Below the pieces are notes generated by a model that worked only from the letters and a program-made list of their open reading frames with translations, was not told the origin of the DNA and made no database searches. Below, piece by piece: positions 1-23,257 of a DNA stretch of 23,257 nt. The stretch lies in assembly GCA_964359165.1 (NCBI GenBank), contig CAYHRV010000008.1:1-23257 (forward strand), written 5' to 3'. The stretch comes from an uncultured Elusimicrobia bacterium. Lineage in GTDB: Bacteria > Elusimicrobiota > Elusimicrobia > UBA1565. The number at the start of each line of letters is the position of its first letter. Position 1 is the first letter of the stretch. A program made the translations under genes and the position numbers.

Positions 1-2
1 CG

Positions 3-105
3 GGAAACTCATACGGGGTCGCGTGGGGTGACTACGACAACGACGGCGACCTGGATGCGATCGTGGCCAACTATTCCAACCAGGACGAGTTCCTTATTCG
101 CAACG
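3..105 (+). other. Last blade of a truncated FG-GAP/VCBS propeller
   Basis: VAWGDYDNDGDLDAIVANYSNQDEFLIRND followed by the same post-propeller domain (NDTAAVHAAPTPPGAFSASFQEYG) that follows the three complete propellers. Confidence 0.8.
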
Positions 106-15100: not shown

Positions 15101-18100
15101 GGCCCCCGGCGGGGTCGACCAGGGGGCCTCGGACATCCCCATGCTCCGCTTCGACCTGCTCTCCAACAAGAACAACTTCTCCTGGCAGGGCGTGGTCGTT
15201 GAGAAGACCGGCACGGCCCAGGACTCCGACGTGGGGGCGGTGAAGGTCTGGCTCGACAACGGCGACGGGGTCTTCTCGGTGGCGATGGATTCCGCCATTA
15301 CCAACGGCCTGGACACCTTCCTCTCCGGGCAGGCCAACGTCGCTCTCACTACGCCGCAGACCATCTCCAAGAGCACGCAGAGCTATTTCATCACCGTCGG
15401 CGTGAGCCCGAGCGCGGTCCCGGGCAGGACGATCGGATTGCAGGTGGCCACCTCGGCCAGCCTGGTCGTCAACTACCCCAACGAGGTCTCTACGATGACC
15501 GTCGCCTTCCCGCTGGAAGGCGGGCCGGCGCCCATCAACCAGTTCGCCAACACGGTCTCGGTGACCACCGCCAGCATAGTCCCCGTCCTGGGGGCCGAGC
15601 CGGGAACCCAGAACGTGGCGGTCATGTCCCTGGAGATGAAGACCAACGTGTCCAACGCCCGCTGGCTCATCCTGCCCATCAGCCAGATCGGCACGGCCCC
15701 GGACACGGACCTCGGCGACGTCAAGGTGTATTACGACGTGAGCAACATCGGGTCCTTCAACTCCGCCAACCTGAGCTCCTACGTGCTCATCACCTCCACG
15801 GGGCACCGGTTCGGACAGAACGGTCCCAAGTCGGTGCGCTTGGCCTTCGCCTCCCCGCCCACGCTCGGCCCGGCGACCCAGCGCTTCTTCGTCACGGTCG
15901 ATCTGAATTCCTCCGCCAAGCCCGAGAACACCGTGAAGCTGAGGACCAACGTCTCCGCGGGAGAGCCGGGGATCATCGAGTCGCCCAACACCCTGGCCAT
16001 CAGCTTCGAATCCTCGGCGTTGAACATCAATCCTCCCCCGACGCTCATGTACGTCCTGGCGGCCAGCTCCGCGCCCGCCTCGGTCAACCAGGGCGACTCC
16101 AACCTTCCCATCCTCACCCTCAGGGCGTGGATGGCGGCCTACACCGGACAATGGACGCAGTTGGCCGTGTCCCGCTGGGCGCCCGGCCTGGATTCGGACG
16201 TCTCCGGCGTAAAGCTCTTCTACGACAGCAACGACAACGGGGTCCTCGACGTCACCTCCGACCAGCGCCTGAGCACCGCCTCCTTCGTCGCGGGCACCGC
16301 GACGCTGGGTTTCTCCACCCAGACCATCCGGGTCGCGACGCAGACCTATTTCCTCACCTACGACATCTCCATCACGGCCGGCGGAGGCAACGGAGCGAGC
16401 GCCTCCCTGGGGGCGCCGGGGGTGTTCACCGTGGCCGCTCCGCACAGCGTCTCTTCGCTGGGCTTCCCGATACAATCGGCCTCCGCCACGGTGAAGGCCA
16501 CCCAGACGGGGCTCTTCGCCCTCGGGCAGGCCAAGGCCCCCGGCCAGCTCGTGCAGAGCGCCACCAACCAGGTCATGCTCACCCTGGAGCTCTATACGAC
16601 TCAGTACGCGCTGCTCTGGAGCGGCCTGTCCGTGCAAAGGACGGGCACGGCTTCGGATGCGGATATCACCGCGGTGCATGTCTGGACCGACGGCGGGACC
16701 TACGGCGTCATAGATCCGGAGGACAAGGACATCACCTCCGGCCTCAACTCCTTCCTGGCCGGGTCGGCCGGGGTGAGCCTCGTCAACGTCCAGACGATCG
16801 GCACCTCGCACGCGCGCTACCTGGTCACCGTGGACATCGCGCCCTTCGCCGACCCGGCCAAGACCTTCGGCCTCTCCGTCGCCGCCGCGTCCGCGTTCAC
16901 GCTCAATTCCCCCAATGTCGCAGTGGACCAGAATTTCCCGATGACCGTGGCGCCCGTTCCCCTGCGGAAGCTGCCCGAGAACCTCGTGGTGACGCCGCAG
17001 AACCTGATGCCCGGCGGGGTCAACCAGGGGCAGGAGTCGACGGCGGCCAAGCTCCTGGTGCGCGCCTCGCGGGATCGGGTGACCTGGACCCGGCTGAAGC
17101 TGGCGAAAGCGGGCAGCATCGAGGAGGCAAGCGTGCGCGAAGTCCGCATCGTCAAGGACCTGGATGGCTCGGGCGCTGTGAGCTCCGGCGACCTTATCGT
17201 AGGAAGCGGGACCTTCAGCTCCGGCGTGGCCGACATCGTCTTCTTCGCCGCCCAGACCGTCACCGCGTCTACGGCGACATACTTCATGACCATGGTCCTG
17301 GATTCCTCGGCCACGGTGGACGCCCTGGCGGGGTTCACCCTGGGCAATGAGACCTTCTTCTCCGTGGACGCTCCCGACGGGGCGGTCTTGAACGGCACCT
17401 CCTTCGCCACGACCTTGGGGAAGGTGCTCGATTCCAAGACCCCGCTCATGCCCGTGGTCACGCTCGATGGGGCCATGAGCAGCCAATTCGAATACCTGCA
17501 CTTCGTCTGGAATTCCACCGTGGCGTTCGGGAGCATGGACAAGGCATGGTACGCGGTGGGAACGGATTCCAGCACCGACGCGGGCAGGCAGAACGTGCTC
17601 GCCTACACCGCCATCCCGGTCACGGCCGTGGATTACAAAGGCATAGGGTTCCCCTTGAAGAGCGGCACCACTTATTATGTCTCGGTCAAGACGCAGTCCT
17701 CCTTCGGCTTCTTCAGCCCGGCGGGCATCTCCCCGGGTATGCTCATGGATTTCACCGTCCCTCCGGTCCCGGCGCCGGCGGTGACCGCCGGGCAGGCCGC
17801 GGTGCTCGTGAGCTGGGGGACCGTCGGCGGGGGCCCCACCGGGATCGCCGGCTACCTCGTCGAATACCGCAAGGGCGACAGCCCCATCTGGTACAACGCG
17901 AAGACCAAGAGCCGGAGCAGCGTCGCCTCCGTATCCTCGATGCGCGCGGATGTCCGCGTAGCCGAGGTCATCACCTCCACCGCCGAACTCGTCACAGGAG
18001 GCTCCTTCCAGGGCACGGATCTTCCCTCCGGCACGCTCTATGTGCGCGTGCGGTCGGTGACCGGGGCCGGGGTGGCGAGCGCGCCGAGTGAGCCGGTTAA

Positions 18101-18425
18101 GGTCCAGGTCGGCGTCCTTCCGCCGGGGGGGATCTCCGACGCCGCCAACTATCCCAACCCCTTCGACTCGCGCAAGAGGGACACGACCATCGTGTACACC
18201 CTGAGCGCGAACGCGGACATGTCCATCAAGATATACGACGTGTATGGCCGCTTGGTCCGGGAGATCGGCTACGGCGCGGGCGGACCCGGGGGCCAGGCCG
18301 GGACCAACGAGGTCAAGTGGGACGGCACGGACGCGGGGGGCCGGAAAGTATCCAAGGGCATCTACCTGGCCGTGCTCCAATCCGGCGGAGCCAAGGTCAT
18401 CCTAAAGATCGGCGTCATTCACTGA
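3..18425 (+). CDS. Giant multidomain surface/secreted protein, 5'-truncated: VCBS/FG-GAP propellers, FnIII-like, LamG-like and Kelch-like repeats, C-terminal FlgD-Ig/T9SS-type-A-like domain
   Basis: The 6120-codon ORF stays open upstream of the listed GTG (63) to the window edge; codons from nt 3 read GNSYGVAWGDYDNDGDLDAIVANYSNQDEFLIRNDT, itself a VCBS blade. Stop TGA at 18423-18425. Repeat and domain motifs run throughout. Confidence 0.96.
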   Translation, partial: GNSYGVAWGDYDNDGDLDAIVANYSNQDEFLIRNDTAAVHAAPTPPGAFSASFQEYGLSSSSGVLTLSWGNGADVENSTASLRYFIRVGTTVAGSSTTFKIPARYSLDGYSGGGSSLYSTKISSAVRGMKLVMQKETTVYWAVVTEDGEFQRSAQSAEQTAFLAAPGAVTDLRVASIVSTGLGASSMTVTLAWTAPGENGYTGAITGGSYDIRYSTLAPITSTNAYAAAAFTISVATNANPGETHSYAIPLLEAKATHYFAITVKDAAGVRSGLSNPTTAQAYVDALSGTADGAYDLAFGDYDRDGDLDAITANSGAADETLLRNDGNSVFTRLTVAGSAGDSRGVAWGDYDNDGDLDAAVANAGGQDEVLLRNDGGGAFAVVALTGSGGDSAGVAWGDHDNDGDLDLAVSNAGGQDEYIARNNGDGTFSTFTLTGTAGASWGVGWGDYDNDGDLDLAVANAAANMVLARNDGNGVFSTSSVAGTSNYRALAWGDFDGDGDLDLVLGTNGDELLVRNNGNGTFTSAALTGSGGDTYGLAAGDYDNDGDLDLLLGNFAGVDETLLRNDGVGNFTPVVLGGTGRSTLGASWGDFDGDGDLDAMLAASNVDDFILRNDTASTHNAPTAPAGGFSSSFQEYGIASSSGVLTLSWGNGSDTPHSTTTLRYLVRVGTTVAGSSTTVKIPSRFSVGGFSGSLPYSTNVSSAVRGMKLVLQKEATVYWAVAAEDSEFARSAQSAEQTASLVAPGRVTDLRVVSIVSTGLGASTMTVTLQWTAPGDDGYSGALAGGTFDLRYSTLAPILGWNDYSTAPFTVSIASSVNAGELQTYVIADLDVRTSHYFAITTKDGLGVRSALSNLNAIATGYILLLPGTSGSDPGAAWGDYDRDGDLDLLLSDSRLMRNDGNGSFVQVAVPGMGGFGASWGDYDNDGDLDIVSNANAIGDEVVLRNDGGAFTAVAVTGSGGNSAGGNAWGDFNNDGRLDFAAANQSAENEVLARNNGNGTFSTSTLTGSGGSSQGIAWGDYDNDGDLDLAVANGGEDPVLLRNNGGGALSVTTALNGFGFPVRAIAWGDYDKDGDLDLALARSGGADESLLRNNGNGTFTEAVLTGSGGDSFGVAWGDYDNDGDLDLAVANAGGGDEVVLRNNGNGTFSKFILAGTAGNTHGITWGDFDGDGDLDLAAASDDKQVMVLRNDAALAHSVPTPPVAGFSASYQEYDASASSGVLTLQWGNGSDVEDSTATLRYFVRVGTTVAESSTTLKLPSRYSLDGFAGGGSFLYSTQVSSAARGIKLVMQKETTVYWSVLTEDSEFLRSSSSTEQTSYLIAPGRVTDLRVSAISSTGLGASSMTVTLQWTAPGDNGYSGALSGALYDIRYSTLAPITAAGAYLAAPFTLSISTNVNPGETQTALLQYLEAKATHYFAITAKDSTGVRSLLSNPATAEAYVRYPAATGGNSKAVAWGDYDKDGDLDALVANGGGADEFLMRNDGNGAFTKVTIAGSGGDSTAVAWGDYDNDGDLDALVANTGNEDEFLLRNDGGAFTKVALTGTAGNSKAAAWGDYDNDGDLDALVANAGTQDEYLLRNNGTSFSSAAIVGIGGDSNGVAWGDHDGDGDLDAVVANGGAEDEVLLRNDGSGVFVPLVMAGGSGGASYGAAWGDYDNDGDLDILVANGGAEDEVLLRNDGGGTFFKITLTGSGGDTRGAVWGDADNDGDLDILAATGGGEDKILLRNDGGGTFAKVVLAGSGSESRGASWGDYDGDGDLDAVLAGDSAQDESILRNDLASSHNAPSAPSSGFSASFQEYGIFATSGVLTLSWGNGSDAETPAASLRYLVRIGTTVAGSSTTLKVPVRVSLNGSSPYSTRITPAARGLKIIIQKETTAYWAVTAEDGESLRSSESVEQSAFLAAPAAIADLAAAQDNTVETSSSAWMTLTWTVPGEDGSASTLQSGAVYDLRWSTVGVVDSQAKYEAVPNQSLIAADGQIPGTVRTQLVAVPPGKTYYFALTVKDSLGSRSGLSNAAAGVFANALMEETTGVAIPTALQGDTTAFLKVKLWVDSGTLTWLKIAVRKTGGVPDSAVKNVAVYQDSNANGVFDAADSFALRTSPAVFVSSAATLTLSPAQTINTTTKTYFVALQFEPANLQTDGSSVAVRLDPQPFTVRGAGIPGTDLPALLLDGVDDQVRVPTSGSLNAIGALTVEAWVKTTDSGADRSIVTRANGGLTQGFRLWLNGAGCGAGVPTLFIGPAFLCANREGTPVRVDDGRWHHVAAAYNDLNGKRIFVDGEMLSTGPVSAGVLADTSDLAFGGPNPAGGGYLAGVLDEVRVSNFMRYTSGFVPALRNSTDGGTALLHHFDALVGTGTLVVDASANGNNGTLLGNMAGYGRSTSTVLVDVQDVLQSSGTDISPTTMYRNATDVGLLKLQLWTDHDYATFQRISVGHFGSGSEAGVTNIRMYKDDGDGLFSPVLDSNLTLGQDFAVGKATFDLVAAGQTQVITPSTKTYFFSWDITGAAQIGESLGLQIGSTEDILLSGTTDAVSALSFPIQTATRAVVAASAFVAAETATGTWVNISSIVFNGNFNLGNVNHFHPRWDQNPATSITGTEPLWNAGKTTTTATQDANDWYFHVKAFDGSDTPGTQQDLGPFFVDRTPPSASLFRSFNSTAGALAEAQVNDLALGVTVQLAVQDALSGLSLDGLAPLAPVEGTVGLWHFDDPSGSVWKDSGTAGIQLSGSGVVTRAAGRFRTGLLFDGSGNLSASPSSLPLGAAVRSIEAWINPVSTQTTLGLVTWGAAGSNTLMRFGMINGKLSSDMGGVSNLAGPVLSTGVWQHAAFTYDGSAARYYLNGVFVGSHTYGAVATSAGTLYVGAGEGATLKFRGTIDEARILNRVLSAEEVYNDRFRGDPYYAAYSTSAGNSWQFVLSTTPGSGPWVARSGAHGSSALETISVYGLNLIVSTSNAAGAQATNQVLFYAADTAGNAQVSGPFGLVVDTNAAVALSTPIAPANGVYTGPRPNFDWAGPSTTSVAAMAGPGGNGGRFYLQAAANDPSFSPGSIVLSISTPALVADTSLSRVVGVYQSTFTLAEGNTYYWRVRSLSSLGVSGPWSAYSSFVVDASSPSASSYLLFNSSGGALGETQYTDILRGATAQMTFADGLAGFPRKLDFGPNAGTIALWHFNERDGSFPVDASTNSLAGTLIGINASSAAYRATPFGAGLRCEGAQAMLASSAPFNFAAGSEFTFEAWINPDSVTGIQIIGGVGSVSPGAGNGNWLLRIDNSKLYFTNATSAGFATLPGVVSAGVWQHVAMTVRGSKTSFYVNGVLNSVGGNGANSGTYDKPFALCTAIGTSGVYENPYQGLIDEVRILNYEATAEQVASDHAATAPGIFSVEYSTTAGNTWAVVSATTPAAGYAYLSFPGAEGGLGPDTLVLRDMTLAHSTNSSAGAAATNQVRFIVPDRAGNFQTAGPFAVLADTVAATAVSTPSYPVGGAYAQTRTNFLWAGPSTKTASGMGASASYLLQVDDAQDFSSPDISVSTPVATHSTSAVTVFGAYVSTFTLADATTFYWRVMAKDFLGQLSPPLTTGKFVTDMSTPVSSSFGTFDSTRGFTSESGANNLQSGVTAQLTVQEAGPSGLRTGLLDGNRTFGVIYTTGGHNPAASVTWNDGGMAEALSDSAGGYFTSLAVYQGRLYAGLATGGSGGKVYSFDGSAWAAPDPFVNDVLALMEFQGKLYAGLEGGEVWGFDGALWTLAADLPEVRVNSLAEYHGRLYAATGSQGRIYAYDPAAGSWYETYKSTNVEIFSLEVYNGRLFAGGNPTLYAFSGSTWTPAFHFQAGGNFYDLQTHNGKLYAATNNQRVYSYDGSAWTFFTPPETEIRALGAHQGRLYFGASLPSIGRVYTHDGKDLLRVRDLATNSDRIFALKTFQDRLYMGAQSGAGPAKVYVSTPLASSITGVDGTNSAQTLQATGLDLIASQNGVVCGGSSPCLATNQVRLTVSDMAGNVHQAGPFSVLVDPLIVPSTAVYPADGSFVRASSPVFTWSELNPMTTHQVQVSSVPSFSNLSVDKLFNTPSFTSPMALAHGTTYYWRIRSQNAAGIYSAYSEPISFAMDLARPSTSAFRHVSSSGGALGESQFNALASGLTVQIDIQDAFSGLDGGPLRLPVDQAAALYPFDEGQGNYALPLSGANRLGFSGASAWAQGLYGKAVKFDGTNSLYSNSAADLPLGNSARTLEAWVYPEDSNGGGILQYGNLMRLSINGSCSAGTGTTGNGKLCLDAADSGDYTFTPNQWHHVAFTYDGNGSGALYADGVHVATVTRSFATPAGDVWVGSAAACGSFNGRIDELRVLSKGLSGAELRADYLRAGAFRAEVSTTAGQAWEVIAATAPHNGRYLALSGAPGSAAVETMSLYHLDLPESTTTLKGASGTNQVKFVVSDRAGNEVTAGPYTVLKDTTVLQPSLFWMVPLSTQSIYLVASATDNFSGIRDFQFEISSSVLFNSSVSTSPWVESATYTFTGLLNSTTYFARVRARDNLLNVSIPSRLDQVGGFAIPAATSTFGSVYYATAPAAPASALQDSYVPMVKFTLQTPPGATSKFFYLRVRKTGNTADSSIVEASVHTDGNSDGVFQSTADVRQAGSPLVNGTALINLSAEGSTQQLNDTAKTFFVALRMRSDAPPGETVGLDILQASDFGLQFPSSPEGPFPTSAAPIPISDGVNDLTIAGVSLSPVVAQPNEKNIKLLRLQAQTNSGTSIINSIAFQLKGTLPSTQLKSLTVWRDKDGDGGFDPAVDEAVSDGNDSFAGGVSTVALTAQASSRTVSVTPTIFFLSADILPTATLGDWFQVEFATANVALLNPLDIVKFAEAGTIISSACTVQQNNIVTVSTTDVMPVAFFQGESYTVLKLMAQVDIGFAVVNRFQISAVGTGQDSDVTTVSVWRDLTVDGGPLNKVTDKLLGSAPFVSGLATMDIPAELNEDYKKLLAGTTAVFFVTYDIGPGASPGRSLGAKLTNASYLRMATPLSAVVSSFPVVTATALIQATTNFLQIPTVVSLAPGGVDQGASDIPMLRFDLLSNKNNFSWQGVVVEKTGTAQDSDVGAVKVWLDNGDGVFSVAMDSAITNGLDTFLSGQANVALTTPQTISKSTQSYFITVGVSPSAVPGRTIGLQVATSASLVVNYPNEVSTMTVAFPLEGGPAPINQFANTVSVTTASIVPVLGAEPGTQNVAVMSLEMKTNVSNARWLILPISQIGTAPDTDLGDVKVYYDVSNIGSFNSANLSSYVLITSTGHRFGQNGPKSVRLAFASPPTLGPATQRFFVTVDLNSSAKPENTVKLRTNVSAGEPGIIESPNTLAISFESSALNINPPPTLMYVLAASSAPASVNQGDSNLPILTLRAWMAAYTGQWTQLAVSRWAPGLDSDVSGVKLFYDSNDNGVLDVTSDQRLSTASFVAGTATLGFSTQTIRVATQTYFLTYDISITAGGGNGASASLGAPGVFTVAAPHSVSSLGFPIQSASATVKATQTGLFALGQAKAPGQLVQSATNQVMLTLELYTTQYALLWSGLSVQRTGTASDADITAVHVWTDGGTYGVIDPEDKDITSGLNSFLAGSAGVSLVNVQTIGTSHARYLVTVDIAPFADPAKTFGLSVAAASAFTLNSPNVAVDQNFPMTVAPVPLRKLPENLVVTPQNLMPGGVNQGQESTAAKLLVRASRDRVTWTRLKLAKAGSIEEASVREVRIVKDLDGSGAVSSGDLIVGSGTFSSGVADIVFFAAQTVTASTATYFMTMVLDSSATVDALAGFTLGNETFFSVDAPDGAVLNGTSFATTLGKVLDSKTPLMPVVTLDGAMSSQFEYLHFVWNSTVAFGSMDKAWYAVGTDSSTDAGRQNVLAYTAIPVTAVDYKGIGFPLKSGTTYYVSVKTQSSFGFFSPAGISPGMLMDFTVPPVPAPAVTAGQAAVLVSWGTVGGGPTGIAGYLVEYRKGDSPIWYNAKTKSRSSVASVSSMRADVRVAEVITSTAELVTGGSFQGTDLPSGTLYVRVRSVTGAGVASAPSEPVKVQVGVLPPGGISDAANYPNPFDSRKRDTTIVYTLSANADMSIKIYDVYGRLVREIGYGAGGPGGQAGTNEVKWDGTDAGGRKVSKGIYLAVLQSGGAKVILKIGVIH
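106..870 (+). other. Two tandem fibronectin-III-like domains (post-propeller pair, copy 1)
   Basis: PPGAFSASFQEYG...VLTLSWGNGADVENSTASLRYFIRVGTTVAGSS...TVYWAVVTEDGEF, then PGAVTDLRV...MTVTLAWTAPGENG...YDIRYSTLAPI...THYFAITVKDAAGVRSGLSN. Confidence 0.75.
870..1845 (+). other. Seven-repeat FG-GAP/VCBS beta-propeller domain
   Basis: Seven GD(Y/F/H)DxDGDLD repeats: FGDYDRDGDLD, VAWGDYDNDGDLD, VAWGDHDNDGDLD, VGWGDYDNDGDLD, LAWGDFDGDGDLD, LAAGDYDNDGDLD, ASWGDFDGDGDLD. Confidence 0.88.
1846..2598 (+). other. FnIII-like domain pair, copy 2
   Basis: APTAPAGGFSSSFQEYGIASSSGVLTLSWGNGSDTPHSTTTLRYLVRVGTTVAGSS... and PGRVTDLRVVSIVSTGLGASTMTVTLQWTAPGDDGYSG...; close to copy 1. Confidence 0.75.
2599..3575 (+). 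other. Seven-repeat FG-GAP/VCBS beta-propeller domain
   Basis: AAWGDYDRDGDLD, ASWGDYDNDGDLD, NAWGDFNNDGRLD, IAWGDYDNDGDLD, IAWGDYDKDGDLD, VAWGDYDNDGDLD, ITWGDFDGDGDLD. Confidence 0.88.
3576..4334 (+). other. FnIII-like domain pair, copy 3
   Basis: PTPPVAGFSASYQEYDASASSGVLTLQWGNGSDVEDSTATLRYFVRVGTTVAESS...; PGRVTDLRVSAISSTGLGASSMTVTLQWTAPGDNGYSG... Confidence 0.75.
4335..5330 (+). other. Seven-repeat FG-GAP/VCBS beta-propeller domain
   Basis: VAWGDYDKDGDLD, VAWGDYDNDGDLD, AAWGDYDNDGDLD, VAWGDHDGDGDLD, AAWGDYDNDGDLD, AVWGDADNDGDLD, ASWGDYDGDGDLD. Confidence 0.88.
5331..6075 (+). other. FnIII-like domain pair, copy 4 (second member more divergent)
   Basis: SAPSSGFSASFQEYGIFATSGVLTLSWGNGSDAETPAASLRYLVRIGTTVAGSS...; AIADLAAAQDNTVETSSSAWMTLTWTVPGEDG...KTYYFALTVKDSLGSRSGLSN. 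Confidence 0.7.
6076..6490 (+). repeat. Unassigned beta-rich repeat domain with Ca-loop-like motif (isolated copy A)
   Basis: FLKVKLWVDSGTLTWLKIAVRKTGGVPDSAVKNVAVYQDSNANGVFDAADSFALRTSPAVFVSSAATLTLSPAQTINTTTKTYFVALQFE. Confidence 0.6.
6507..7010 (+). other. LamG/concanavalin-A-like domain 1
   Basis: LLLDGVDDQVRVPTSGSLNAIGALTVEAWVKTTD...DGRWHHVAAAYNDLNGKRIFVDGE...LAGVLDEVRVSNFMRYTSGF. Confidence 0.85.
7159..7620 (+). repeat. Unassigned beta-rich repeat domain (isolated copy B)
   Basis: GLLKLQLWTDHDYATFQRISVGHFGSGSEAGVTNIRMYKDDGDGLFSPVLDSNLTL...TQVITPSTKTYFFSWDITGAAQIGESLGLQI. Confidence 0.55.
8087..8690 (+). other. LamG-like domain 2
   Basis: EGTVGLWHFDDPSGSVWKDSG...RTGLLFDGSGNLSA...RSIEAWINPVSTQTT...WQHAAFTYDGSAARYYLNGVFVG...FRGTIDEARILNRVLSAEEV. 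Confidence 0.88.
9475..10110 (+). other. LamG-like domain 3
   Basis: AGTIALWHFNERDGSFPVDASTNSLAG...FTFEAWINPDSVTG...WQHVAMTVRGSKTSFYVNGVLN...YQGLIDEVRILNYEATAEQV. Confidence 0.88.
10990..11800 (+). other. Seven-repeat Kelch-like beta-propeller region
   Basis: Seven (L)xxxxGRLYAG...VYxFDGSxW repeats: SLAVYQGRLYAGLATG, ALMEFQGKLYAGLEGG, SLAEYHGRLYAATGSQ, SLEVYNGRLFAGGN, DLQTHNGKLYAATNN, ALGAHQGRLYFGAS, ALKTFQDRLYMGAQSG. Confidence 0.8.
12450..13050 (+). other. LamG-like domain 4
   Basis: AALYPFDEGQGNYALPLSG...GKAVKFDGTNSLYSNSAADLPLG...RTLEAWVYPEDSNGG...WHHVAFTYDGNGSGALYADGVHVATV...FNGRIDELRVLSKGLSGAEL. Confidence 0.88.
13680..17420 (+). repeat. Tandem array of about eight copies of the unassigned ~155-165 aa beta-rich repeat domain
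   Basis: Anchor segments recur every ~463-492 nt: ADSSIVEASVHTDGNSDGVF, STQLKSLTVWRDKDGDGGFD, QDSDVTTVSVWRDLTVDGG, QDSDVGAVKVWLDNGDGVF, PDTDLGDVKVYYDVSNIGSF, LDSDVSGVKLFYDSNDNGVLD, SDADITAVHVWTDGGTYGVID, EEASVREVRIVKDLDGSGAV. Most are followed by a QTIxxxTxTYFxTYDI-like segment. Confidence 0.75.
17440..18110 (+). other. FnIII-like domain(s)
   Basis: FEYLHFVWNSTVAFGSMDKAWYAVGTDSS...GTTYYVSVKTQSSFGFFS; VPAPAVTAGQAAVLVSWGTVGGGPTGIAGYLVEYRKG...GTLYVRVRSVTGAGVASAPSEPVKV. Confidence 0.65.
18130..18422 (+). other. C-terminal FlgD-Ig-like / T9SS type-A-like sorting domain
   Basis: ANYPNPFDSRKRDTTIVYTLSANADMSIKIYDVYGRLVREIGYG...GTNEVKWDGTDAGGRKVSKGIYLAVLQSGGAKVILKIGVIH: YPNPF, IYD..GR, WDG.D..G, GIYL signature at the extreme C-terminus. 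Confidence 0.8.
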
Positions 18426-18491: not shown

Positions 18492-20087
18492 GTGATTCAG
18501 CGCGCGAGCGGGCTACACTATAGCGTGCGCGGATTCCTCGCCGTCATCAGCCTTATTTCCCTCTCCATCCCCCCGGCTTTCTGCGCAGGCGTCGCCGGAA
18601 GGCCGGGCGACCTGTTCAATTTCGGCGCCGGGGCGCGCTCCTTGGGCATGGGCTCGGCCGCGACCGCGGTGGTCAACGACGTGACCTCCGTCTACTACAA
18701 CCCCGCGGGGCTGGGCCTGCTGCCCTCGCGGGAAGTCGTGTTCATGCGCGCCATGCTCTTCCAGGGGGCCAACTACGATTATCTGGGCTACGCGCAGAAC
18801 AAGAGCAAGACGGCCGGCGGCTGGGGCTTGGAGTTCATCCGCCTGGGCATCCAGGGGGCGGAGGGGCGCGATGAGTTCAACCAGCCGACCGGCGGGTTCG
18901 GCTATTCCGAGACCGCCTTCTCCTTCGCCAGCGGCTGGCGGGGGGTGCTCCACCCCAACATGTCCCTGGGAGTGCGGGGCAAGATGCTCCAGCGCAGCCT
19001 GGCCGGCAGTTCGGACAGGCTCGTGGGCGTTGATTTCGGGGCGCAGGCCGGCCCCTTCATGGGCGAGCGCCTGACCCTGGGCGCCGTGGCCTCCAACGTC
19101 GTGGGCCTCAAGACCGGCGACACCGACGACAAGCTCCCGACCTTCCTGCGCGTCGGGGCCGCCTACCGGGTGGCCGGGCCCCTCTCCATCGCCGGCGACT
19201 TCTCCAACGACAAGGAGTTCCGCCTGGGCACGGAGTACGCCTTCGGCATGGTGTCCGTGCGCCTGGGCATGGCCGATGAGGGCCTCACCTTCGGGGGCGG
19301 CCTGGTCTTCAAGAACCGCTACCGCATGGACCTGGCCGTGCTCAGCCATCCCGAATTGGGAATGTCCCAGAGGATATCCCTCGGGTATCGTTTCGGCGCC
19401 GTCGCGCCCACGGCGAAGGGGCGCAAGATGCAGTTCTTCGCCGGGCAGTTCCTCGGAGAGGCCCAGGCCGCGCTCAAGAAGCGCGACTACCTCAAGGCCT
19501 CCTCGGCCCTGGACACGGGCATCGGCATCGACCCCAAGCTGGGCGGGGGGGAATGGCGCGCCAAGGCGGAGCGTCTGCGGCGCATCGTCATGAAGCTCGA
19601 CCTCCAAGCCCATCCCGAGGACGCCGAGGTGCTCGCCCAGGAGACCGAGGCGGCCTACATCGCCTATGCCGCCATCGACGCCTACCTGACGCGCGATGAG
19701 GACAGGGCCCTCCTGCTCGCGCACGCGGCCCTGGGCCAGGAGCCCAGCAAGGGCGCCTACCAGCACCTTCTGGACGCTCTCTCGGGACTCAGCGGCAGGC
19801 CGGTGGACCGCGACCTGGTCCTGCCTCCCGGGCGCCTGGCCGAGCTCAAGATGAAGAAAGCCGTGGACGCGGTCTACGCGCGGCGCTTTGAAGCCGCCAT
19901 CGTTCTGCTCCGGGAAGCGCTCTGGCTCGACCCGGAGAACGCCGCGGCCTGGACCAAGCTCGGGTCCGCCTATTTCGCGGTCAACGACAAGGAGCGCGCG
20001 GCCGAAGCCTACCGGAAAGCGGTGGAGCTCGATCCCGCCGACACCAAGCTCAAGGAGTTCATGCGCGCCCAAGGGATGCGGCAATAA
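18492..20087 (+). CDS. PorV/PorQ-like outer-membrane beta-barrel protein with C-terminal TPR-like region
   Basis: Signal-peptide-like FLAVISLISLSIPPAFCAG; then AGARSLGMGSAATAVVNDVTSVYYNPAGLGLL, the typical PorV/PorQ N-terminal motif; alternating beta-strand pattern up to ISLGYRFG; C-terminal helical repeats such as AAAWTKLGSAYFAVNDKERAAEAYRKAVELDP. The true start may be GTG 18525. Confidence 0.85.
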   Translation: MIQRASGLHYSVRGFLAVISLISLSIPPAFCAGVAGRPGDLFNFGAGARSLGMGSAATAVVNDVTSVYYNPAGLGLLPSREVVFMRAMLFQGANYDYLGYAQNKSKTAGGWGLEFIRLGIQGAEGRDEFNQPTGGFGYSETAFSFASGWRGVLHPNMSLGVRGKMLQRSLAGSSDRLVGVDFGAQAGPFMGERLTLGAVASNVVGLKTGDTDDKLPTFLRVGAAYRVAGPLSIAGDFSNDKEFRLGTEYAFGMVSVRLGMADEGLTFGGGLVFKNRYRMDLAVLSHPELGMSQRISLGYRFGAVAPTAKGRKMQFFAGQFLGEAQAALKKRDYLKASSALDTGIGIDPKLGGGEWRAKAERLRRIVMKLDLQAHPEDAEVLAQETEAAYIAYAAIDAYLTRDEDRALLLAHAALGQEPSKGAYQHLLDALSGLSGRPVDRDLVLPPGRLAELKMKKAVDAVYARRFEAAIVLLREALWLDPENAAAWTKLGSAYFAVNDKERAAEAYRKAVELDPADTKLKEFMRAQGMRQ

Positions 20088-20093
20088 GATCCG

Positions 20094-21040
20094 ATGGACA
20101 TTGTGATCGTGGTCGTCGTCCCCCTTCTGTTCCTGATGCTGGCCGCCAGCATGCTGGTGGTCAGCCAGCTCTCCGGCTTCTACCACTTCAACAAGTATTC
20201 GAAGCGCCAGCAGGAGAACAAGCGCGAGATCGCCACCTTCATGAACCGCCTGGCCGCGGCCCAGAACACCGTGTTCCAGCGCAGCCGGCAGCTCGAGGAC
20301 CTCTCCTCCCGGCTCCAGATGAACAATCAGGAGCTGGCGCGCCTCAACAGCATGAAGACCAAGTTCCTGTCTATGGCCGTCCACGACATGAGGACGCCTC
20401 TGGCCACCATGAAGGGCTTCGGAGAGATGCTCAGCCGGCAGGTCTATGAGGACAAGCAGAAGAAGTACGTCGATTACATCGTCCGCGGCAGCGACAAGAT
20501 CAACGACCTCCTGGCCGACCTCACCGACCTCTCCATCATCGAGGCCGGCAAGCTGCGCATGTCCAAGTCCCCCTTCGAGCTCTCCGCGATGCTCGACTCG
20601 GACATCACGCCCCGCATCGGATTCGCCGCCCAGGAGAAAGGCATCGTTTTCACCACGACGGGCCTTCCCCAGAGCGTCACAGTGCATGGAGACCGCGCGA
20701 ACCTCGCAAAAGCCCTCAAGAACATGCTCAATAACGCGGTCAAGTTCACCCCGGCCGGCGGAAAGGTGGACCTCAAGGTGACGCTGACCGGCCGCGGATT
20801 GCTCTTCCAGATCAAGGACACCGGCCCCGGCATCCACCTCTCCGAGCGCAAGCGCGTCTTCGAGAAGTTCTACCAATCGCAATTCGGAGACCCCAAGGCG
20901 AAGAAGCAGGGCTGGGGCCTGGGGCTGGCCATCGCCCAAGAGATCGTCAAGGCCCATCAAGGGGAGGCCGGGGTGGACTCCCCGGGACTGGGCAAGGGCT
21001 CGACCTTCTGGTGCCGCATCCCCCTCAAGCCCTCCCGCGC
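20094..21040 (+). other. Membrane-anchored histidine kinase region (HisKA + HATPase_c)
   Basis: TM near residues 4-27, then a Q/N/E/K-rich coiled-coil-like stretch, candidate phospho-His in VHDMRTP (CAC at 20382-20384, residue 97), full N/G1/F/G2 motif set, closing with GKGSTFWCRIPL. Confidence 0.92.
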
Positions 21041-22562
21041 GCCCATGAAGGCCCTGGCTTCCCTTGCGCTCTTCTTCCTGCTCGGCCTGCTCCCGGGGAG
21101 GGCGAAGGCCCAGTCGGGCATCCCGCTCGACGACAAGGCCAAGTTCGAGCGGTCGCTCGAGGAAAAGGCGGAGTCGGTGCTCCTGCGCATCCTGGGCCCC
21201 AACCGCTCCCGCGTGGTCGTGGACGCGACCATCGATTTCACGCGCATCGAGAAGTTCGAGGTCAAGGCCGGCGCGGCCATCGGCGGTGAGGAGAGGAACG
21301 CCCTCTTCCTCTGGCAGAACATCGGGGCCCAGAGCGGAGGCCAGGAGCTCTTGCCCGGCATCCCCTCGCCGGAAGCGGCCCCGGGTTTCGGCGCGAAGTC
21401 CTATGAGAGGCAGAACTCCTTCCCTAGCTCCTTCGTCAAGCGGCTCAAGGTCACCGTGGTCCTGGACCGCACCGTGAGCGCGGAGATGGACGACGTCCTG
21501 ACCCGGGCCGTCGGGGAGATACTCAATCTCCAGGCGGACCGCGATGAGATGTCGATCACCCGGGCGCCCTTCGCCCCTCCTTGGAAGACGATATGGCACA
21601 CGCAGGAGTCGGTGAGCCTCCTATTTAAGTACGCCGTGGTGAGCCTCATGACGCTGATCACCCTGGTGGTGGTGGCCGCCTGCTTCCTCAAGCTGGCCAG
21701 CGCCATGGATTCCGTGGCCCAAGCCCAAGCCCATCAGCTTCAGATGGACTTCGGCCAGGGGAAGGAAGGGGAGGGAGGGGCCGGCGCGGATGGGAAGAAG
21801 AAGGAAGGCGAGGAGGAGGAAGAGGAGGAGGAAGGGCCGCAGAAGATCGTCTTCAACGTGCGGCCGGAACAGGTGGAGACGCTCGCCGAGCTCCTGCGCG
21901 GCCAGGACCCGGAGAACGTAGCTCTAGTGGCCGCGCACCTGAGCCAGGACGTCAAGAAGCTCTTCTTCGCCCAACTCTCCCCCTCCGCCTATAGCCAGGT
22001 GCTCCTGCACCTGAGCCGCATCCGCTTCGTGGAGGCCGAGGTCGTCTCCGCGGTCAAAGACGAGCTCGAGCGGCGCATGGACAGCGCCGTGGGCGGACGC
22101 TCGAACCTGCTGGAGCTCATCGACACCTCCGACCTGCGCGGCAAGCGGGAGCTCCTGGGCATGCTGGAAGCCACCGACCCCGACCTCTACGCCGTGGCGC
22201 GGGAGCGGATACTGCTCTTCGAGGACCTCTCCGATTTGGAGGAAAAGGATTGGTCGCTCGTGCTCTCCGTCGTGACCCTGGAGGAATGGGCCTTCGCGCT
22301 CTATGAGGCTCCCGAACTCCTGGTCGAGGCCCTAAGGGGGCAGATGCTGCCCAAGACCTGGGCGATATTGGCGCAGATGATGCAGGTGGGCAGGCCCTCC
22401 GAAGCCGCGGTGAAGAAGACGCATGAGCGCATCGTCAAGGCGGTCGCCAAGCTCATCGCCGACGGCCGCATCACCAATCCGGTGACACGGCGCATCGAGC
22501 TCAAGACACTGCAGAAAGAGGAGGCCCTCCCCGCTCAAGAGGAGGGGGTGCTCAATGGCTGA
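20094..22562 (+). CDS. Histidine kinase fused to FliF-C-like (RBM3 + TM) and FliG-like domains
   Basis: One uninterrupted 822-codon frame. HK: N-terminal TM, H-box MAVHDMRTPLATMKGF, N-box ALKNMLNNAVKF, G1 DTGPGI, G2 GWGLGLA. FliF-like: FERSLEEKAESVLLRILGPNRSRVVVDATIDFTRIEKFEVKAG...FVKRLKVTVVLDRT, TM FKYAVVSLMTLITLVVVAACFLKL. FliG-like: SNLLELIDTSDLRGKRELLGMLEATDPDLYAVARERILLFEDLSDLEEKDW...VKKTHERIVKAVAKLIADGRI. Confidence 0.82.
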   Translation: MDIVIVVVVPLLFLMLAASMLVVSQLSGFYHFNKYSKRQQENKREIATFMNRLAAAQNTVFQRSRQLEDLSSRLQMNNQELARLNSMKTKFLSMAVHDMRTPLATMKGFGEMLSRQVYEDKQKKYVDYIVRGSDKINDLLADLTDLSIIEAGKLRMSKSPFELSAMLDSDITPRIGFAAQEKGIVFTTTGLPQSVTVHGDRANLAKALKNMLNNAVKFTPAGGKVDLKVTLTGRGLLFQIKDTGPGIHLSERKRVFEKFYQSQFGDPKAKKQGWGLGLAIAQEIVKAHQGEAGVDSPGLGKGSTFWCRIPLKPSRAPMKALASLALFFLLGLLPGRAKAQSGIPLDDKAKFERSLEEKAESVLLRILGPNRSRVVVDATIDFTRIEKFEVKAGAAIGGEERNALFLWQNIGAQSGGQELLPGIPSPEAAPGFGAKSYERQNSFPSSFVKRLKVTVVLDRTVSAEMDDVLTRAVGEILNLQADRDEMSITRAPFAPPWKTIWHTQESVSLLFKYAVVSLMTLITLVVVAACFLKLASAMDSVAQAQAHQLQMDFGQGKEGEGGAGADGKKKEGEEEEEEEEGPQKIVFNVRPEQVETLAELLRGQDPENVALVAAHLSQDVKKLFFAQLSPSAYSQVLLHLSRIRFVEAEVVSAVKDELERRMDSAVGGRSNLLELIDTSDLRGKRELLGMLEATDPDLYAVARERILLFEDLSDLEEKDWSLVLSVVTLEEWAFALYEAPELLVEALRGQMLPKTWAILAQMMQVGRPSEAAVKKTHERIVKAVAKLIADGRITNPVTRRIELKTLQKEEALPAQEEGVLNG
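21045..21760 (+). other. Internal signal-peptide/TM, FliF C-terminal (RBM3-like) region and second TM
   Basis: MKALASLALFFLLGLLPGRAKAQSG looks like a signal peptide; the following residues match the conserved shape of the FliF C-terminal domain; the TM ends at LKLASAMD. Confidence 0.72.
21845..22505 (+). other. FliG-like domain (middle + C-terminal)
   Basis: VRPEQVETLAELLRGQDPENVALVAAHLSQDVKKLFFAQLSP...LLELIDTSDLRGKRELLGMLEATDPDLYAVARERILLFEDLSDL...RIVKAVAKLIADGRI; compare canonical FliG EHPQ..A.IL.HL, A.ILN..DR..E..IL..LE..DP.LA..I...MFVFEDL. Confidence 0.75.
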
Positions 22563-23257
22563 AAAGGTCGATTTCCTGCTCGCCTCCCTGCGCGGCCAGC
22601 CTCCTCCCGAGGCGCCGCCAGAGGAAGGTGATTTCACGTCGGCCGCCGCCCCTTCCGAGGACGCGCTCGCCCCCATGCGGGCCAAGATCGAGGAACTCGA
22701 GCGCAAGCTGGCCGAGGCGGCCTCTCCCCCGGCCCCGGCGGAAGGGGAGGAGGCGGCGCCCCAGCCGCCCCAGGCGCCGACCGAGTTGGCTCTCTTCCTC
22801 CATACCCGCGTGGAGCTATTGGAGAAGAGGCTGGAGCTGGCCCAGCAGGAGGCTCTGCGCGCCAATCTGATACTCCGGGAGAGGGAGGACGCCCAGCGCA
22901 AGGCCCAGACCGAGGTGGAGGACCTCTTCCGCGGCATCCGGGAACAGGAACGCGCGGCCCGCTTCGACCGGAGGCTAAGGGAGGATCACTCGACGGTGCG
23001 GGGCAAGGTGGAGGAACTGGAGGCGCGCCTGGCCATGGCCCAACTGCGCATGATCCCGGCCTCGGAGGTGCTCGCCTTCCTGGAGAAGGAAGAGGGGCTT
23101 GAACGGCTTAAGGAAAGGCTCAAAGAACAGCTATCAAGAATCGAGAACGCGGCGCCTTTGGAGGCGCCAGTTCCAGAGGCAGAGGAGCGGCCCGGGCACG
23201 CCCGGCCCCCCCCCGGGCGCCCCGGTACCGGCCCCCCCCCGCCCATAGCGCCCCAGG
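22555..23257 (+). CDS. Coiled-coil, proline-rich protein, 3'-truncated by the window
   Basis: ATG 22555 with strong SD-like AAGAGGAGGGGG just upstream, overlapping the previous stop by 8 nt. No in-frame stop to 23257: MAEKVDFLLASLRGQPPPEAPPEEG...RAKIEELERKLAEAA...LFLHTRVELLEKRLELAQQEALRANLILREREDAQRK...EVLAFLEKEEGLERLKERLKEQLSRIE. Not in the supplied ORF track. Confidence 0.8.
   Translation, partial: MAEKVDFLLASLRGQPPPEAPPEEGDFTSAAAPSEDALAPMRAKIEELERKLAEAASPPAPAEGEEAAPQPPQAPTELALFLHTRVELLEKRLELAQQEALRANLILREREDAQRKAQTEVEDLFRGIREQERAARFDRRLREDHSTVRGKVEELEARLAMAQLRMIPASEVLAFLEKEEGLERLKERLKEQLSRIENAAPLEAPVPEAEERPGHARPPPGRPGTGPPPPIAPQ

Follow-up and report, generated by a model that had tools for sequence, protein, structure and literature searches.

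To our knowledge, flagellar rotor proteins have been thought of as parts of flagella only. In one of these proteins, FliF, the ring-building motifs RBM1 and RBM2 surround the export gate. Chains that join FliF to its partner FliG have been engineered, an example being a 945-residue Vibrio chain (PDB 8z4d). The gene described here, from a stretch of 23,257 nucleotides of an uncultured Elusimicrobia bacterium (referred to as the window throughout), encodes a protein in which FliF-type and FliG-type parts naturally form one chain. It is a real and conserved protein with three transmembrane segments (TM1 to TM3), in which an intact HisKA/HATPase_c histidine kinase core is combined with a FliF RBM3-type domain and a FliG middle-plus-C-terminal domain. 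The gene product is probably the rotor subunit of a motor that derives from the flagellum but is not itself flagellar; this motor would be driven by MotAB, tied to an adhesin, and made with its own sensor-less kinase. The source is a groundwater bacterium of a phylum reported to be mostly without flagella.

With FliF and FliG, the protein shares an RBM3-type domain between two transmembrane segments, the cytoplasmic FliG ARM-type middle domain (ARM-M), the Gly-Gly and MFXF-type hinges, and the torque domain, and it is likewise paired with MotAB of the flagellar type. In contrast to them, it lacks RBM1, RBM2, the N-terminal FliG domain (FliG_N), the EHPQ motif, and the acidic pair of the torque helix; it carries an added histidine kinase at the N terminus, and no flagellar export, rod, hook, or switch genes lie nearby. 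Since RBM1/2, FliG_N, EHPQ, and the flagellar gene context are among the features missing, it is not FliF or FliG in the strict sense. The described stators MotAB and PomAB are 5:2 ion motors with which the neighboring MotA can be aligned over its full length, the prolines, the MotB Asp, the plug, and the OmpA-like domain being common to both. They differ in the rotor-facing charges, which are altered in the clade whose rotor carries the kinase (the kinase clade), and in that the stator here is encoded together with a non-flagellar rotor, an adhesin, and a PorV-like protein.

[quoted passage not shown] However, the motor here is MotAB with a FliG-type rotor and not GldL/GldM, the phylum is Elusimicrobiota, and the PorV score lies below the cut-off. 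GldK/L/M/N, SprA, and PorU were not seen in the loci, for which no targeted T9SS search was made. As the motor is a different one and the loci showed none of the core T9SS genes, the system cannot be classed as a T9SS. By analogy, the closest system in working would be the flagellar rotor-stator core, and the closest in overall logic would be the T9SS gliding apparatus.

Histidine kinases of the LiaS/BceS type have no real extracytoplasmic sensor domain, their input presumably coming from a membrane partner. The kinase here resembles these intramembrane-sensing enzymes in having essentially no extracytoplasmic sensor and in that a transmembrane helix leads directly into the dimerization and histidine phosphotransfer (DHp) domain. 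It differs in that the presumed partner is a flagellar rotor module on the same chain and, unlike in the LiaS/BceS type, membrane anchors stand on either side of the kinase core (TM1 and TM2). The flagellar motors of Caulobacter and Pseudomonas are reportedly used for tactile sensing that feeds into cyclic di-GMP (c-di-GMP). The likeness to these motors is in the conversion of rotor/stator load state to a signal, and genes for proteins with a receiver and a GGDEF domain (REC-GGDEF) lie beside many of the operons described below. There, however, the flagellum is a working one and the signaling link is indirect, whereas in the present case rotor and kinase belong to one polypeptide and there is no apparent flagellum.

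Domain architecture of the fusion protein

The gene is a single reading frame with an ATG start. Its coordinates and those of its domains and neighbors are collected in Table 1, in nucleotides of the window and, for domains, also in residues of the 822-amino-acid (aa) protein. From the N terminus, the order is TM1, coiled coil, HisKA/HATPase_c, TM2, FliF RBM3-like domain, TM3, acidic linker, and FliG middle and C-terminal domains. The Pfam matches to HisKA, HATPase_c, FliG_M, and FliG_C all exceeded the gathering score, and YscJ_FliF_C was matched weakly, under threshold, at residues 364 to 391 (0.0017). The C-terminal half of the window protein was aligned with naturally kinase-less homologues, and the resulting profile was run against the PDB sequences. 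It matched the FliG middle-plus-C structure 1lkv with an E value of 6e-28 and the FliF chain 9yh6 with an E value of 2e-6, the latter match spanning the whole periplasmic module; 8z5s and 6scn were also matched. An AlphaFold model of the C-terminal half, with a mean predicted local distance difference test (pLDDT) score of 78.9, was matched by Foldseek to FliG middle-plus-C (MC) structures at an E value of ~1e-9 and to FliF RBM3/collar rings at ~1e-4, with TM-scores of 0.5 to 0.57.

In the AlphaFold model of the full-length protein (pLDDT 74.7), an unbroken helix from residue 2 to 114 comprises TM1, the coiled coil, and the DHp helix with H97, and forms a hairpin with the second DHp helix (2-114/120-150). 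This second helix and the ATP-binding (CA) domain reach residue 310 and are followed by TM2 at residues 319 to 330, a periplasmic alpha/beta domain at 345 to 490, TM3 from 504, the disordered acidic linker at 552 to 590, and an all-helical FliG region at 591 to 811. The predicted topology is coherent, with the kinase in the cytoplasm, the FliF-like part in the periplasm, and the FliG-like part again in the cytoplasm.

A first-pass annotation of this DNA, made from the sequence alone, had proposed the same domain order with a complete kinase core and an acidic linker, and all of these are borne out by Pfam, the PDB profile search, AlphaFold, and Foldseek. Its in/out/in topology is reproduced by the full-length model. 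The truncated, RBM3-like FliF that it described is confirmed as RBM3 only by the profile search, AlphaFold, and Foldseek, and its FliG-like end is confirmed by Pfam scores above the cut-off, by the 1lkv match, and by the structural match of the C-terminal domain. Its reservation that FliF and FliG similarity might be lacking proved groundless, similarity to both being strong.

The RBM3-like domain is flanked by TM2 and TM3, as RBM3 is flanked in FliF. By the profile search, the models, and Foldseek, RBM1 and RBM2 are absent, the periplasmic part consisting of only ~150 residues that match RBM3 alone. It contains a conserved insertion of ~50 residues (390 to 439), which was modeled with low confidence in the monomer and occupies the position of the FliF beta-collar. 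Invariant periplasmic residues include G368-P369, D381-F382, W407, L420-P421-G422, and Y437.

In the cytoplasmic end, the middle domain agreed with FliG_M structures at TM-scores of 0.79 to 0.85 and root mean square deviations (rmsd) of 1.2 to 1.8 Å. FliG_N was found neither by Pfam nor in the full-length model, and its place is taken by TM3 and the acidic linker, which form a covalent link to the FliF-like part. The equivalent of the MFXF hinge is 'ILLFEDL' at residues 706 to 712, of which 'LLFED' is kept in the clade. At the FliM-binding EHPQ(R) motif the window protein instead has 'QDPEN', and the clade as a whole has (Q/E)(D/E)(P/A)EN. The torque helix, residues 748 to 765, reads 'RGQMLPKTWAILAQMMQV', with K754 at the position of E. 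coli R281 and Q761/M762 at the positions of D288/D289. The Lys at the R281 position is conserved, and most orthologues have a Glu one residue before the D288/D289 positions. Judged by these motifs, the rotor domain appears to keep the features of a motor (the hinges) and to have lost those of the switch (EHPQ).

Conservation of the fusion and of its junction

A search with the FliF/FliG half of the protein found ~40 proteins of 808 to 847 aa that were 37 to 88% identical and had HisKA and HATPase_c together with FliG_M/FliG_C, plus YscJ_FliF_C in some. Thus the same fusion, for which the first-pass annotation had advised a search in related genomes, is far from absent among close relatives. 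The fused orthologues were drawn from NCBI, JGI, ENA, and Logan assemblies, and those with a taxonomic name were almost all from metagenome-assembled genomes (MAGs) of Elusimicrobia. Among loci from species-representative genomes, of which there were 17, all came from Elusimicrobia/Elusimicrobiota MAGs except one labeled 'bacterium.' The MAGs that carry the cluster include GCA_001799695.1 (GWA2_69_24), GCA_003450735.1 (UBA9639), and GCA_016194745.1. In a preprint's supplement, two of the 17 carriers are listed in the order UBA1565 (~4.2 Mb, 68% guanine plus cytosine [GC], groundwater) and one in Elusimicrobiales; the GC content of the window, 66%, is near that given there for the two UBA1565 carriers. 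An alignment of 36 to 38 full-length members indicated strong constraint over the whole chain, in both halves.

At the junction of kinase and rotor, the DNA is a clean in-frame read-through (...FWCRIPLKPSRAP-MKALASLALFFLLGLLPGRAKAQS...). The junction coincides with TM2, the place at which the gene is split in some relatives, whose separate rotor proteins begin 'MRLAGLFFAFALPAAAQTIPLE'. Four arrangements were observed. The first, the fused form, prevails in the clade. In the second (L004, L005, L014, and L020), they are two genes with a 4-bp overlap exactly at TM2, the kinase ending in '...AAA*'. The third has two genes with motA between them (L017 and L018), and in the fourth, found in the distant relatives L026 and L028 with a kinase-less rotor, a separate HAMP-HisKA-HATPase_c gene stands right after motB. 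Hence, the kinase and rotor appear to be linked by more than their fusion, and since they are separate genes in some lineages, the covalent linkage is not essential.

These arrangements bear on whether the fusion is accidental or neutral, or an artefact of assembly or gene calling in which two unrelated neighbors are read as one. The overlap of stop and start at the exact junction in the split relatives, where a single base change interconverts the two forms, would allow for such an event. Against it, many independent assemblies and sources have yielded the fused form, in ~40 proteins whose identity goes down to 37%; a second, independent ENA groundwater contig (L001, 4,076 bp) encodes an identical protein of 822 aa; and the split kinase stays in the cluster even where motA lies between, with both halves strongly constrained. 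Read-through or another artefact was therefore rejected, and an accidental origin is considered highly improbable.

The periplasmic domain begins with a conserved Gln, and in 36 of 38 fused orthologues this residue directly follows a small-x-small motif, which in the window is A-K-A (residues 337 to 339). As TM2 has the form of a signal peptide and carries this motif, signal peptidase I could cut the chain after insertion, and the mature kinase (TM1, kinase, and TM2) and the rotor protein may be two polypeptides in a 1:1 ratio. Of the view that kinase and rotor are covalently joined, the in-frame fusion stands, being present in ~40 proteins; the joint is not essential, as the separate genes show, and may be severed at TM2.

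A flagellar-type stator encoded with the rotor

The stator genes were examined in relatives. In the locus L007, the rotor half is 96% identical to that of the window, and the cluster continues with the coiled-coil protein, MotA, and MotB. From this gene order at 96% identity, the window organism almost certainly has its stator genes, motA and motB, just beyond the end of the window. The MotA of the relatives aligned end to end with the structures of PomA and flagellar MotA (E value of 5e-31), and its best NCBIfam models were the flagellar PomA/MotP/MotA models (~1e-44), with TolQ far behind at 5.5e-8; on these values, a motor of the ExbB/TolQ type was rejected. MotA has four transmembrane segments, and the channel prolines, equivalent to P151 and P199 of PomA, are conserved. 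In MotB, the proton-binding Asp lies in an invariant 'YGDLMSYLM', and the plug and the OmpA-type peptidoglycan-binding domain are kept. These features make the stator one of the flagellar type, and it looks functional. The presence of stator genes points to a torque-receiving rotor and not just a platform.

The canonical rotor-facing charges of MotA (E. coli R90/E98; PomA R88/K89/E96/E97) are not kept in the kinase clade, where the position of PomA R88 is Gln, that of E96 is Arg, and a conserved Asp follows three residues later. Basic residues at positions 88/89 are retained in the distant loci L025 to L027. In the kinase clade, a FliG with 'PKTWAILEQMM' is thus paired with a MotA with 'VQ..GL.ALR..D', and in L025 a near-canonical FliG with 'LLKEEMEFGRP' is paired with a MotA that keeps the R88 and E96 equivalents. 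The rotor and stator surfaces therefore vary together, as expected for partners.

Absence of flagellar genes from the loci, and the wider family

FliK, FlgE, FliM, FliN, FliPQR, FlhB, and FlhA from a Margulisiibacteriota operon were used as queries for flagellar genes. No homologue of any of them was found among the open reading frames (ORFs) of ≥80 aa in ~0.45 Mb of sequence from the window and the loci, and no flagellar export, rod/hook, or switch genes were present within 10 kb in >15 loci. This answers, for the loci, the question that the first pass had raised for the genome, of whether fliM, fliN, or flhA is present. In a preprint on magnetotactic Elusimicrobiota covering 219 genomes of the phylum, only a few were reported to encode a complete flagellum, and most free-living members had no flagellar structural proteins yet carried motAB, flbD, and fliG, in a role described as 'unclear.' The lack of a flagellum in this organism is supported, not proven.

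In a full-text literature search, no account was found of the fusion, of the cluster, or of the wider mini-rotor family treated below. Neither fusion nor cluster is covered by a paper on MotAB evolution, a survey of flagellar loss, a paper on groundwater Elusimicrobia, or a preprint on giant genes, and in the literature found only the magnetotactic Elusimicrobiota preprint mentions the orphan motAB/flbD/fliG genes. The present locus gives the orphan motAB/fliG of Elusimicrobiota a concrete, conserved architecture and context.

The wider family was explored by a profile search of 1.84 billion representatives with cut-offs of E≤0.001 and E≤1e-30. The first yielded 6,549 proteins, mostly ordinary FliG, and the second 161 clusters. 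Most of these clusters are kinase-less proteins of 480 to 670 aa with a signal or transmembrane segment, a periplasmic domain of ~170 aa, a transmembrane segment near residues 190 to 240, and a FliG-like end, here called mini-rotors; in public annotation they are 'FliG C-terminal domain-containing' or 'hypothetical.' In all contexts of the wider family that included downstream sequence, MotA and MotB followed. In the Margulisiibacteriota locus L027 (GCA_041650635.1), a 480-aa short FliF(RBM3)-FliG fusion without RBM1/2 is encoded at positions 3096 to 4538, and the genes directly downstream encode MotA, MotB (with LysM), FliK, FlgE, FliM, FliN, FliPQR, FlhB, and FlhA. This true flagellar operon may use, or adjoin, a minimal fused rotor. 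Together with the MotAB linkage of the contexts, it suggests that the mini-rotor family is rooted in real flagellar rotors. By gene context, the family appears to have recurrent links to giant adhesins/PorV-like barrels on one side and to kinases on the other, and the Elusimicrobia fusion would combine both. One 705-aa member (P0141/P0202, RLE71917.1) is encoded on a 4.9-kb contig that was assigned to a 'Thermoprotei archaeon' MAG and is probably mis-binned bacterial DNA.

The same data were weighed for the possibility that the organism has a genuine if unusual flagellum, to which this protein would contribute the MS-ring/rotor while the remaining genes are located in other parts of the genome. 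That a distant relative, P0132 of Margulisiibacteriota, heads a real flagellar operon with MotAB, FliK, FlgE, FliM/N, FliPQR, and FlhBA would fit this, as would the complete flagella of a few Elusimicrobiota and the flagellar type of MotA. It is made improbable by the lack of FliG_N and of RBM1/RBM2, the domains placed around the export gate in FliF; by the absence of flagellar genes within 10 kb in any of the loci; by conserved neighbors that are an adhesin and a PorV-like barrel; by the report that most free-living Elusimicrobiota have motAB and fliG without structural flagellar genes; and by the departure of the torque-helix and MotA charges from the flagellar consensus. A non-flagellar, MotAB-driven rotor is preferred.

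Association with a giant adhesin and a PorV-like protein

BLAST comparison of all loci revealed a conserved gene order: a giant protein, a barrel-TPR protein, the kinase-FliF-FliG protein, a coiled-coil protein, MotA, MotB, and usually an OmpR-like protein. The order from the adhesin with its CTD to MotB was found in every locus with enough flanking sequence, with sizes of 2,250 to >6,100 aa for the giant protein, ~520 aa for the barrel-TPR protein, ~245 aa for MotA, and ~230 aa for MotB. The window covers the first three genes of this array and the start of the fourth.

The C terminus of the giant protein matched TIGR04183, the T9SS type A sorting domain, with 29.7 bits against an NCBIfam cut-off of 23, and in Pfam matched FlgD_ig (3e-9), Por_Secre_tail (6.9e-5), and CHU_C. 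FG-GAP and Laminin_G domains were found in its orthologues. Within the giant protein, FG-GAP-type blocks with 'WGDYDNDGDLD' alternate with a module '...LRNDTA..H.AP..P...FSASFQEYG...SGVLTLSWGNG...', present in at least four copies. The barrel of the second protein matched NCBIfam PorV_fam with an E value of 1.2e-22 and 80.9 bits, just below the cut-off of 90. The position of this PorV-like/TPR gene is kept in all loci and in the distant loci L024, L025, and L029, in which the association of adhesin and PorV/TPR thus recurs next to a kinase-less rotor. The first-pass annotation had suggested a repurposed, flagellum-derived envelope platform with phosphosignaling; the context agrees with this, motA/motB being in the operon, the adhesin and PorV-like genes upstream, and further flagellar genes absent within 10 kb.

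The coiled-coil protein of the relatives has 361 to 407 aa in the closest clade, divergent members reaching as much as 682 aa, and its gene is followed by motA and motB. It matched no Pfam or NCBIfam family at meaningful scores, and FliH, FliM, and FliL were rejected as identities on that ground. In one divergent cluster (L003), a gene for a FlgO/CsgG-like protein lies right after motB, at positions 16339 to 17190 on the forward strand; FlgO is an outer-membrane, motility-associated protein in Vibrio.

Kinase input and candidate phosphoacceptors

The catalytic residues of the kinase are intact. In the alignment of 36 to 38 orthologues, H97, D98, R100, and P102 of the H-box were invariant, as were N210, N214, D242, and G244 and the G2 box G273-W-G-L-G-L. 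No PAS, HAMP, GAF, or periplasmic sensor domain was found for the kinase by Pfam or in the full-length model, in line with the earlier impression that an obvious sensor domain was lacking; TM1 begins with residue 2 already and passes directly into the coiled coil. TM1 itself is strongly conserved, P10 being invariant and F13, L14, L16, A17, M20, V22, V23, and S24 being kept at ≥90% in the orthologue alignment. With no sensor domain and an unusually conserved TM1, input from within the membrane assembly is the most economical reading. Since TM1 is one helix with that of His97, the kinase most likely reads the rotor/stator assembly in the membrane, and we infer that the rotor module is the source of its input.

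The in-operon OmpR-like protein usually keeps the acceptor Asp, but three other features that a working receiver has, namely the acidic pair, the Thr/Ser, and the Lys, are missing from it. With such a receiver, it was downgraded as the obvious cognate regulator and is more likely to be controlled in some other way. A canonical REC-GGDEF gene, convergent with the operon and 0 to 1.4 kb from its end, was found in eight loci (six distinct: L002, L004/5/20, L011, L013, L021, and L022); other loci had single REC genes or a REC gene and a hybrid kinase nearby. The REC-GGDEF genes of L002 (positions 15750 to 16697) and L004 (15994 to 16968) are on the reverse strand, and the active-site motif in L002 is 'GGDDF', not GGDEF/GGEEF. 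In L019 (6876 to 8863) and L023 (3475 to 5477), which are members with 40 to 42% identity, a hybrid histidine kinase of ~540 aa with a receiver and a single receiver of 123 aa are encoded on the reverse strand, opposite to the operon, between the coiled-coil gene and motA. Candidates for a cognate receiver near the gene are the canonical REC-GGDEF or REC genes, present in many loci, though not in all; the receiver inside the operon is degenerate.

These observations raise the alternative of a pure sensing device, in which a small ring loaded by MotAB would sense the proton-motive force, the envelope state, or the surface load, and the kinase signal would be the sole output; this would be a dedicated form of the tactile sensing by flagellar motors in Caulobacter and Pseudomonas. 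The kinase is built into the rotor and no other input domain is present, REC-GGDEF adjoins many of the operons, and no shaft is apparent that would carry torque outward. Moreover, in distant clusters without an adhesin in view, the module is again accompanied by a kinase (L026, and L028, whose contig ends on the upstream side), and there is a literature on surface sensing by flagellar motors. The kinase-less relatives, however, speak for a different core role: L024, L025, and L029 have the rotor with a giant adhesin and/or PorV/TPR protein and MotAB, but no kinase, which argues that the core role of the module predates the kinase and does not need it. The adhesin and PorV-like genes are, in addition, consistently kept close side by side, which suggests a mechanical or assembly link. 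A device for sensing only is therefore considered rather unlikely, and a rotor with mechanical output is favored.

Proposed machine and its weighing

In the favored reading, the RBM3 domains would assemble into a ring at the inner membrane, on its periplasmic side, and the FliG domains would hang beneath this ring on the acidic linker. Peptidoglycan-anchored MotA5B2 units would push the torque helix of FliG, using the proton gradient. The mechanical output would most likely be aimed at the PorV-like/TPR protein and the giant adhesin, which might be moved or tensioned, as in gliding or surface grip, or be helped in its deployment. The kinase would most likely read the assembly state of rotor and stator, be it assembly, stator engagement, or load, and would pass phosphate to a nearby canonical receiver. 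The best candidate, REC-GGDEF, would link the load on the adhesin to c-di-GMP.

Several points weigh against this reading. Ring formation, rotation, and a physical link to the PorV-like protein or adhesin are steps that we infer from homology and synteny, and no rod or other obvious shaft spans the periplasm to the outer membrane. In the kinase clade, the acidic pair D288/D289 of the FliG torque helix and the equivalent of MotA R90 are missing, so the interface may work differently or may not transmit torque. The covariation of rotor and stator comes from only two or three independent lineages. EHPQ is also absent from P0132, a relative inside a true flagellar operon, which weakens the argument that FliM is not bound. 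The absence of a flagellum here is drawn from one preprint's statement at the phylum level and from local context. Of the candidate partners of the kinase, the regulator inside the operon has a pseudo-receiver, and REC-GGDEF, which is encoded on the opposite strand, is missing from several loci. Finally, if TM2 is cleaved by signal peptidase, the mature kinase and rotor would be left without a covalent link.

More tentatively, the locus could represent a previously unrecognized class of proton-driven envelope machine, consisting of a stand-alone RBM3-ring/FliG rotor with MotAB and no flagellum. It is an equally speculative suggestion that a giant T9SS-type adhesin is moved, tensioned, or deployed by this machine via its PorV-like partner. 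If such a class exists, the Elusimicrobia rotor would carry its own kinase, so that mechanical load would become a phosphosignal directly, and the kinase-less family of 161 clusters would either reflect 'half a motor' put to new use in many lineages or be related to the pre-flagellar rotor-stator core. If the favored reading holds, the system would add another use of 5:2 ion motors to those in flagella, Tol/Ton, T9SS gliding, Agl-Glt, and Zorya, and the only one that re-uses a FliG rotor. It would also show, in a natural system, mechanical state feeding directly into two-component signaling. As a rotor-stator system of very small size, it would lend itself to structural work and to tests of how the core of the flagellar motor arose.

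Features of the window and of related loci

Table 1. Coordinates of the fusion gene, its domains, and its neighbors in the window, with the gene order of distant loci
Feature	Position	Strand	Basis or gene order
Giant surface protein, >6,140 aa, start cut by window edge	3..18425	+	FG-GAP-type repeats; T9SS type A sorting domain at ~18150-18410
PorV-like gene: signal peptide, PorV/PorQ-like barrel (residues 43-301), C-terminal TPR	18492..20087	+	NCBIfam; Pfam TPR and UPF0164
Whole gene: histidine kinase/FliF-RBM3/FliG-MC fusion, 822 aa	20094..22562	+	ORF; Pfam; ~40 orthologues of same architecture
TM1, residues 2-25, strongly conserved, unbroken into coiled coil and DHp helix	20097..20168	+	Conservation; model helix 2-114
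HisKA/DHp domain, residues 87-152, His97 in 'HDMRTP'	20352..20549; His codon 20382-20384	+	Pfam E=1.5e-15; conservation
HATPase_c catalytic domain, residues 199-312, N/G1/G2 boxes intact	20688..21029	+	Pfam E=1.8e-23; conservation
TM2/internal signal-peptide-like segment, M318-S341, A-K-A directly before Gln	21045..21116	+	Sequence; orthologue motif
Periplasmic FliF RBM3-like domain, residues 344-491	21123..21566	+	9yh6/8z5s/6scn profile matches; Foldseek; models
TM3, ~residues 504-531, highly conserved, back to cytoplasm	21603..21686	+	Model helix 504-551; 'LFKY..LMTLITL.VVAACFLKLA'
Acidic linker, disordered, residues 552-590, including EEEEEEEE	21747..21863	+	pLDDT <50 over 548-582; variable in alignment
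FliG middle (ARM) domain, residues 595-665	21876..22088	+	Pfam FliG_M E=2e-7; structure matches
Gly-Gly hinge G667-G668, invariant, between FliG middle and C domains	22092..22097	+	Alignments; T. maritima FliG 'VGG'
FliG C-terminal domain, residues 691-794	22164..22475	+	Pfam FliG_C E=1.4e-14; 1qc7 TM-score 0.93, rmsd 1.1 Å
Coiled-coil gene, ATG overlapping fusion stop codon (ATGGCTGA), runs past window	22555..23257	+	Translation; orthologues in place
L025 (GCA_002412545.1, DHVG01000014.1)	1-17051		14,454-aa protein, TPR protein, rotor, unknown, FlbD, MotA, two MotB-like
L029			Giant protein, PorV-like/TPR, rotor, MotA, MotB
L024			PorV/TPR, rotor; short contig
L026, L028			Rotor, MotA, MotB(s), then separate kinase
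L027 (Margulisiibacteriota)			Rotor-like gene heads true flagellar operon

The kinase-less rotor protein of L025 has extra TPR repeats, and the two MotB-like genes of that locus are of the MotB/OmpA-like kind. On the reverse strand of the window, two ORFs of 1,692 and 1,028 aa (13302-18380 and 18513-21599) lie antisense to real genes. They show no sign of being genes themselves; their translations are rich in Arg, Gly, and Pro and resemble those of shadow ORFs in a sequence of 66% GC.

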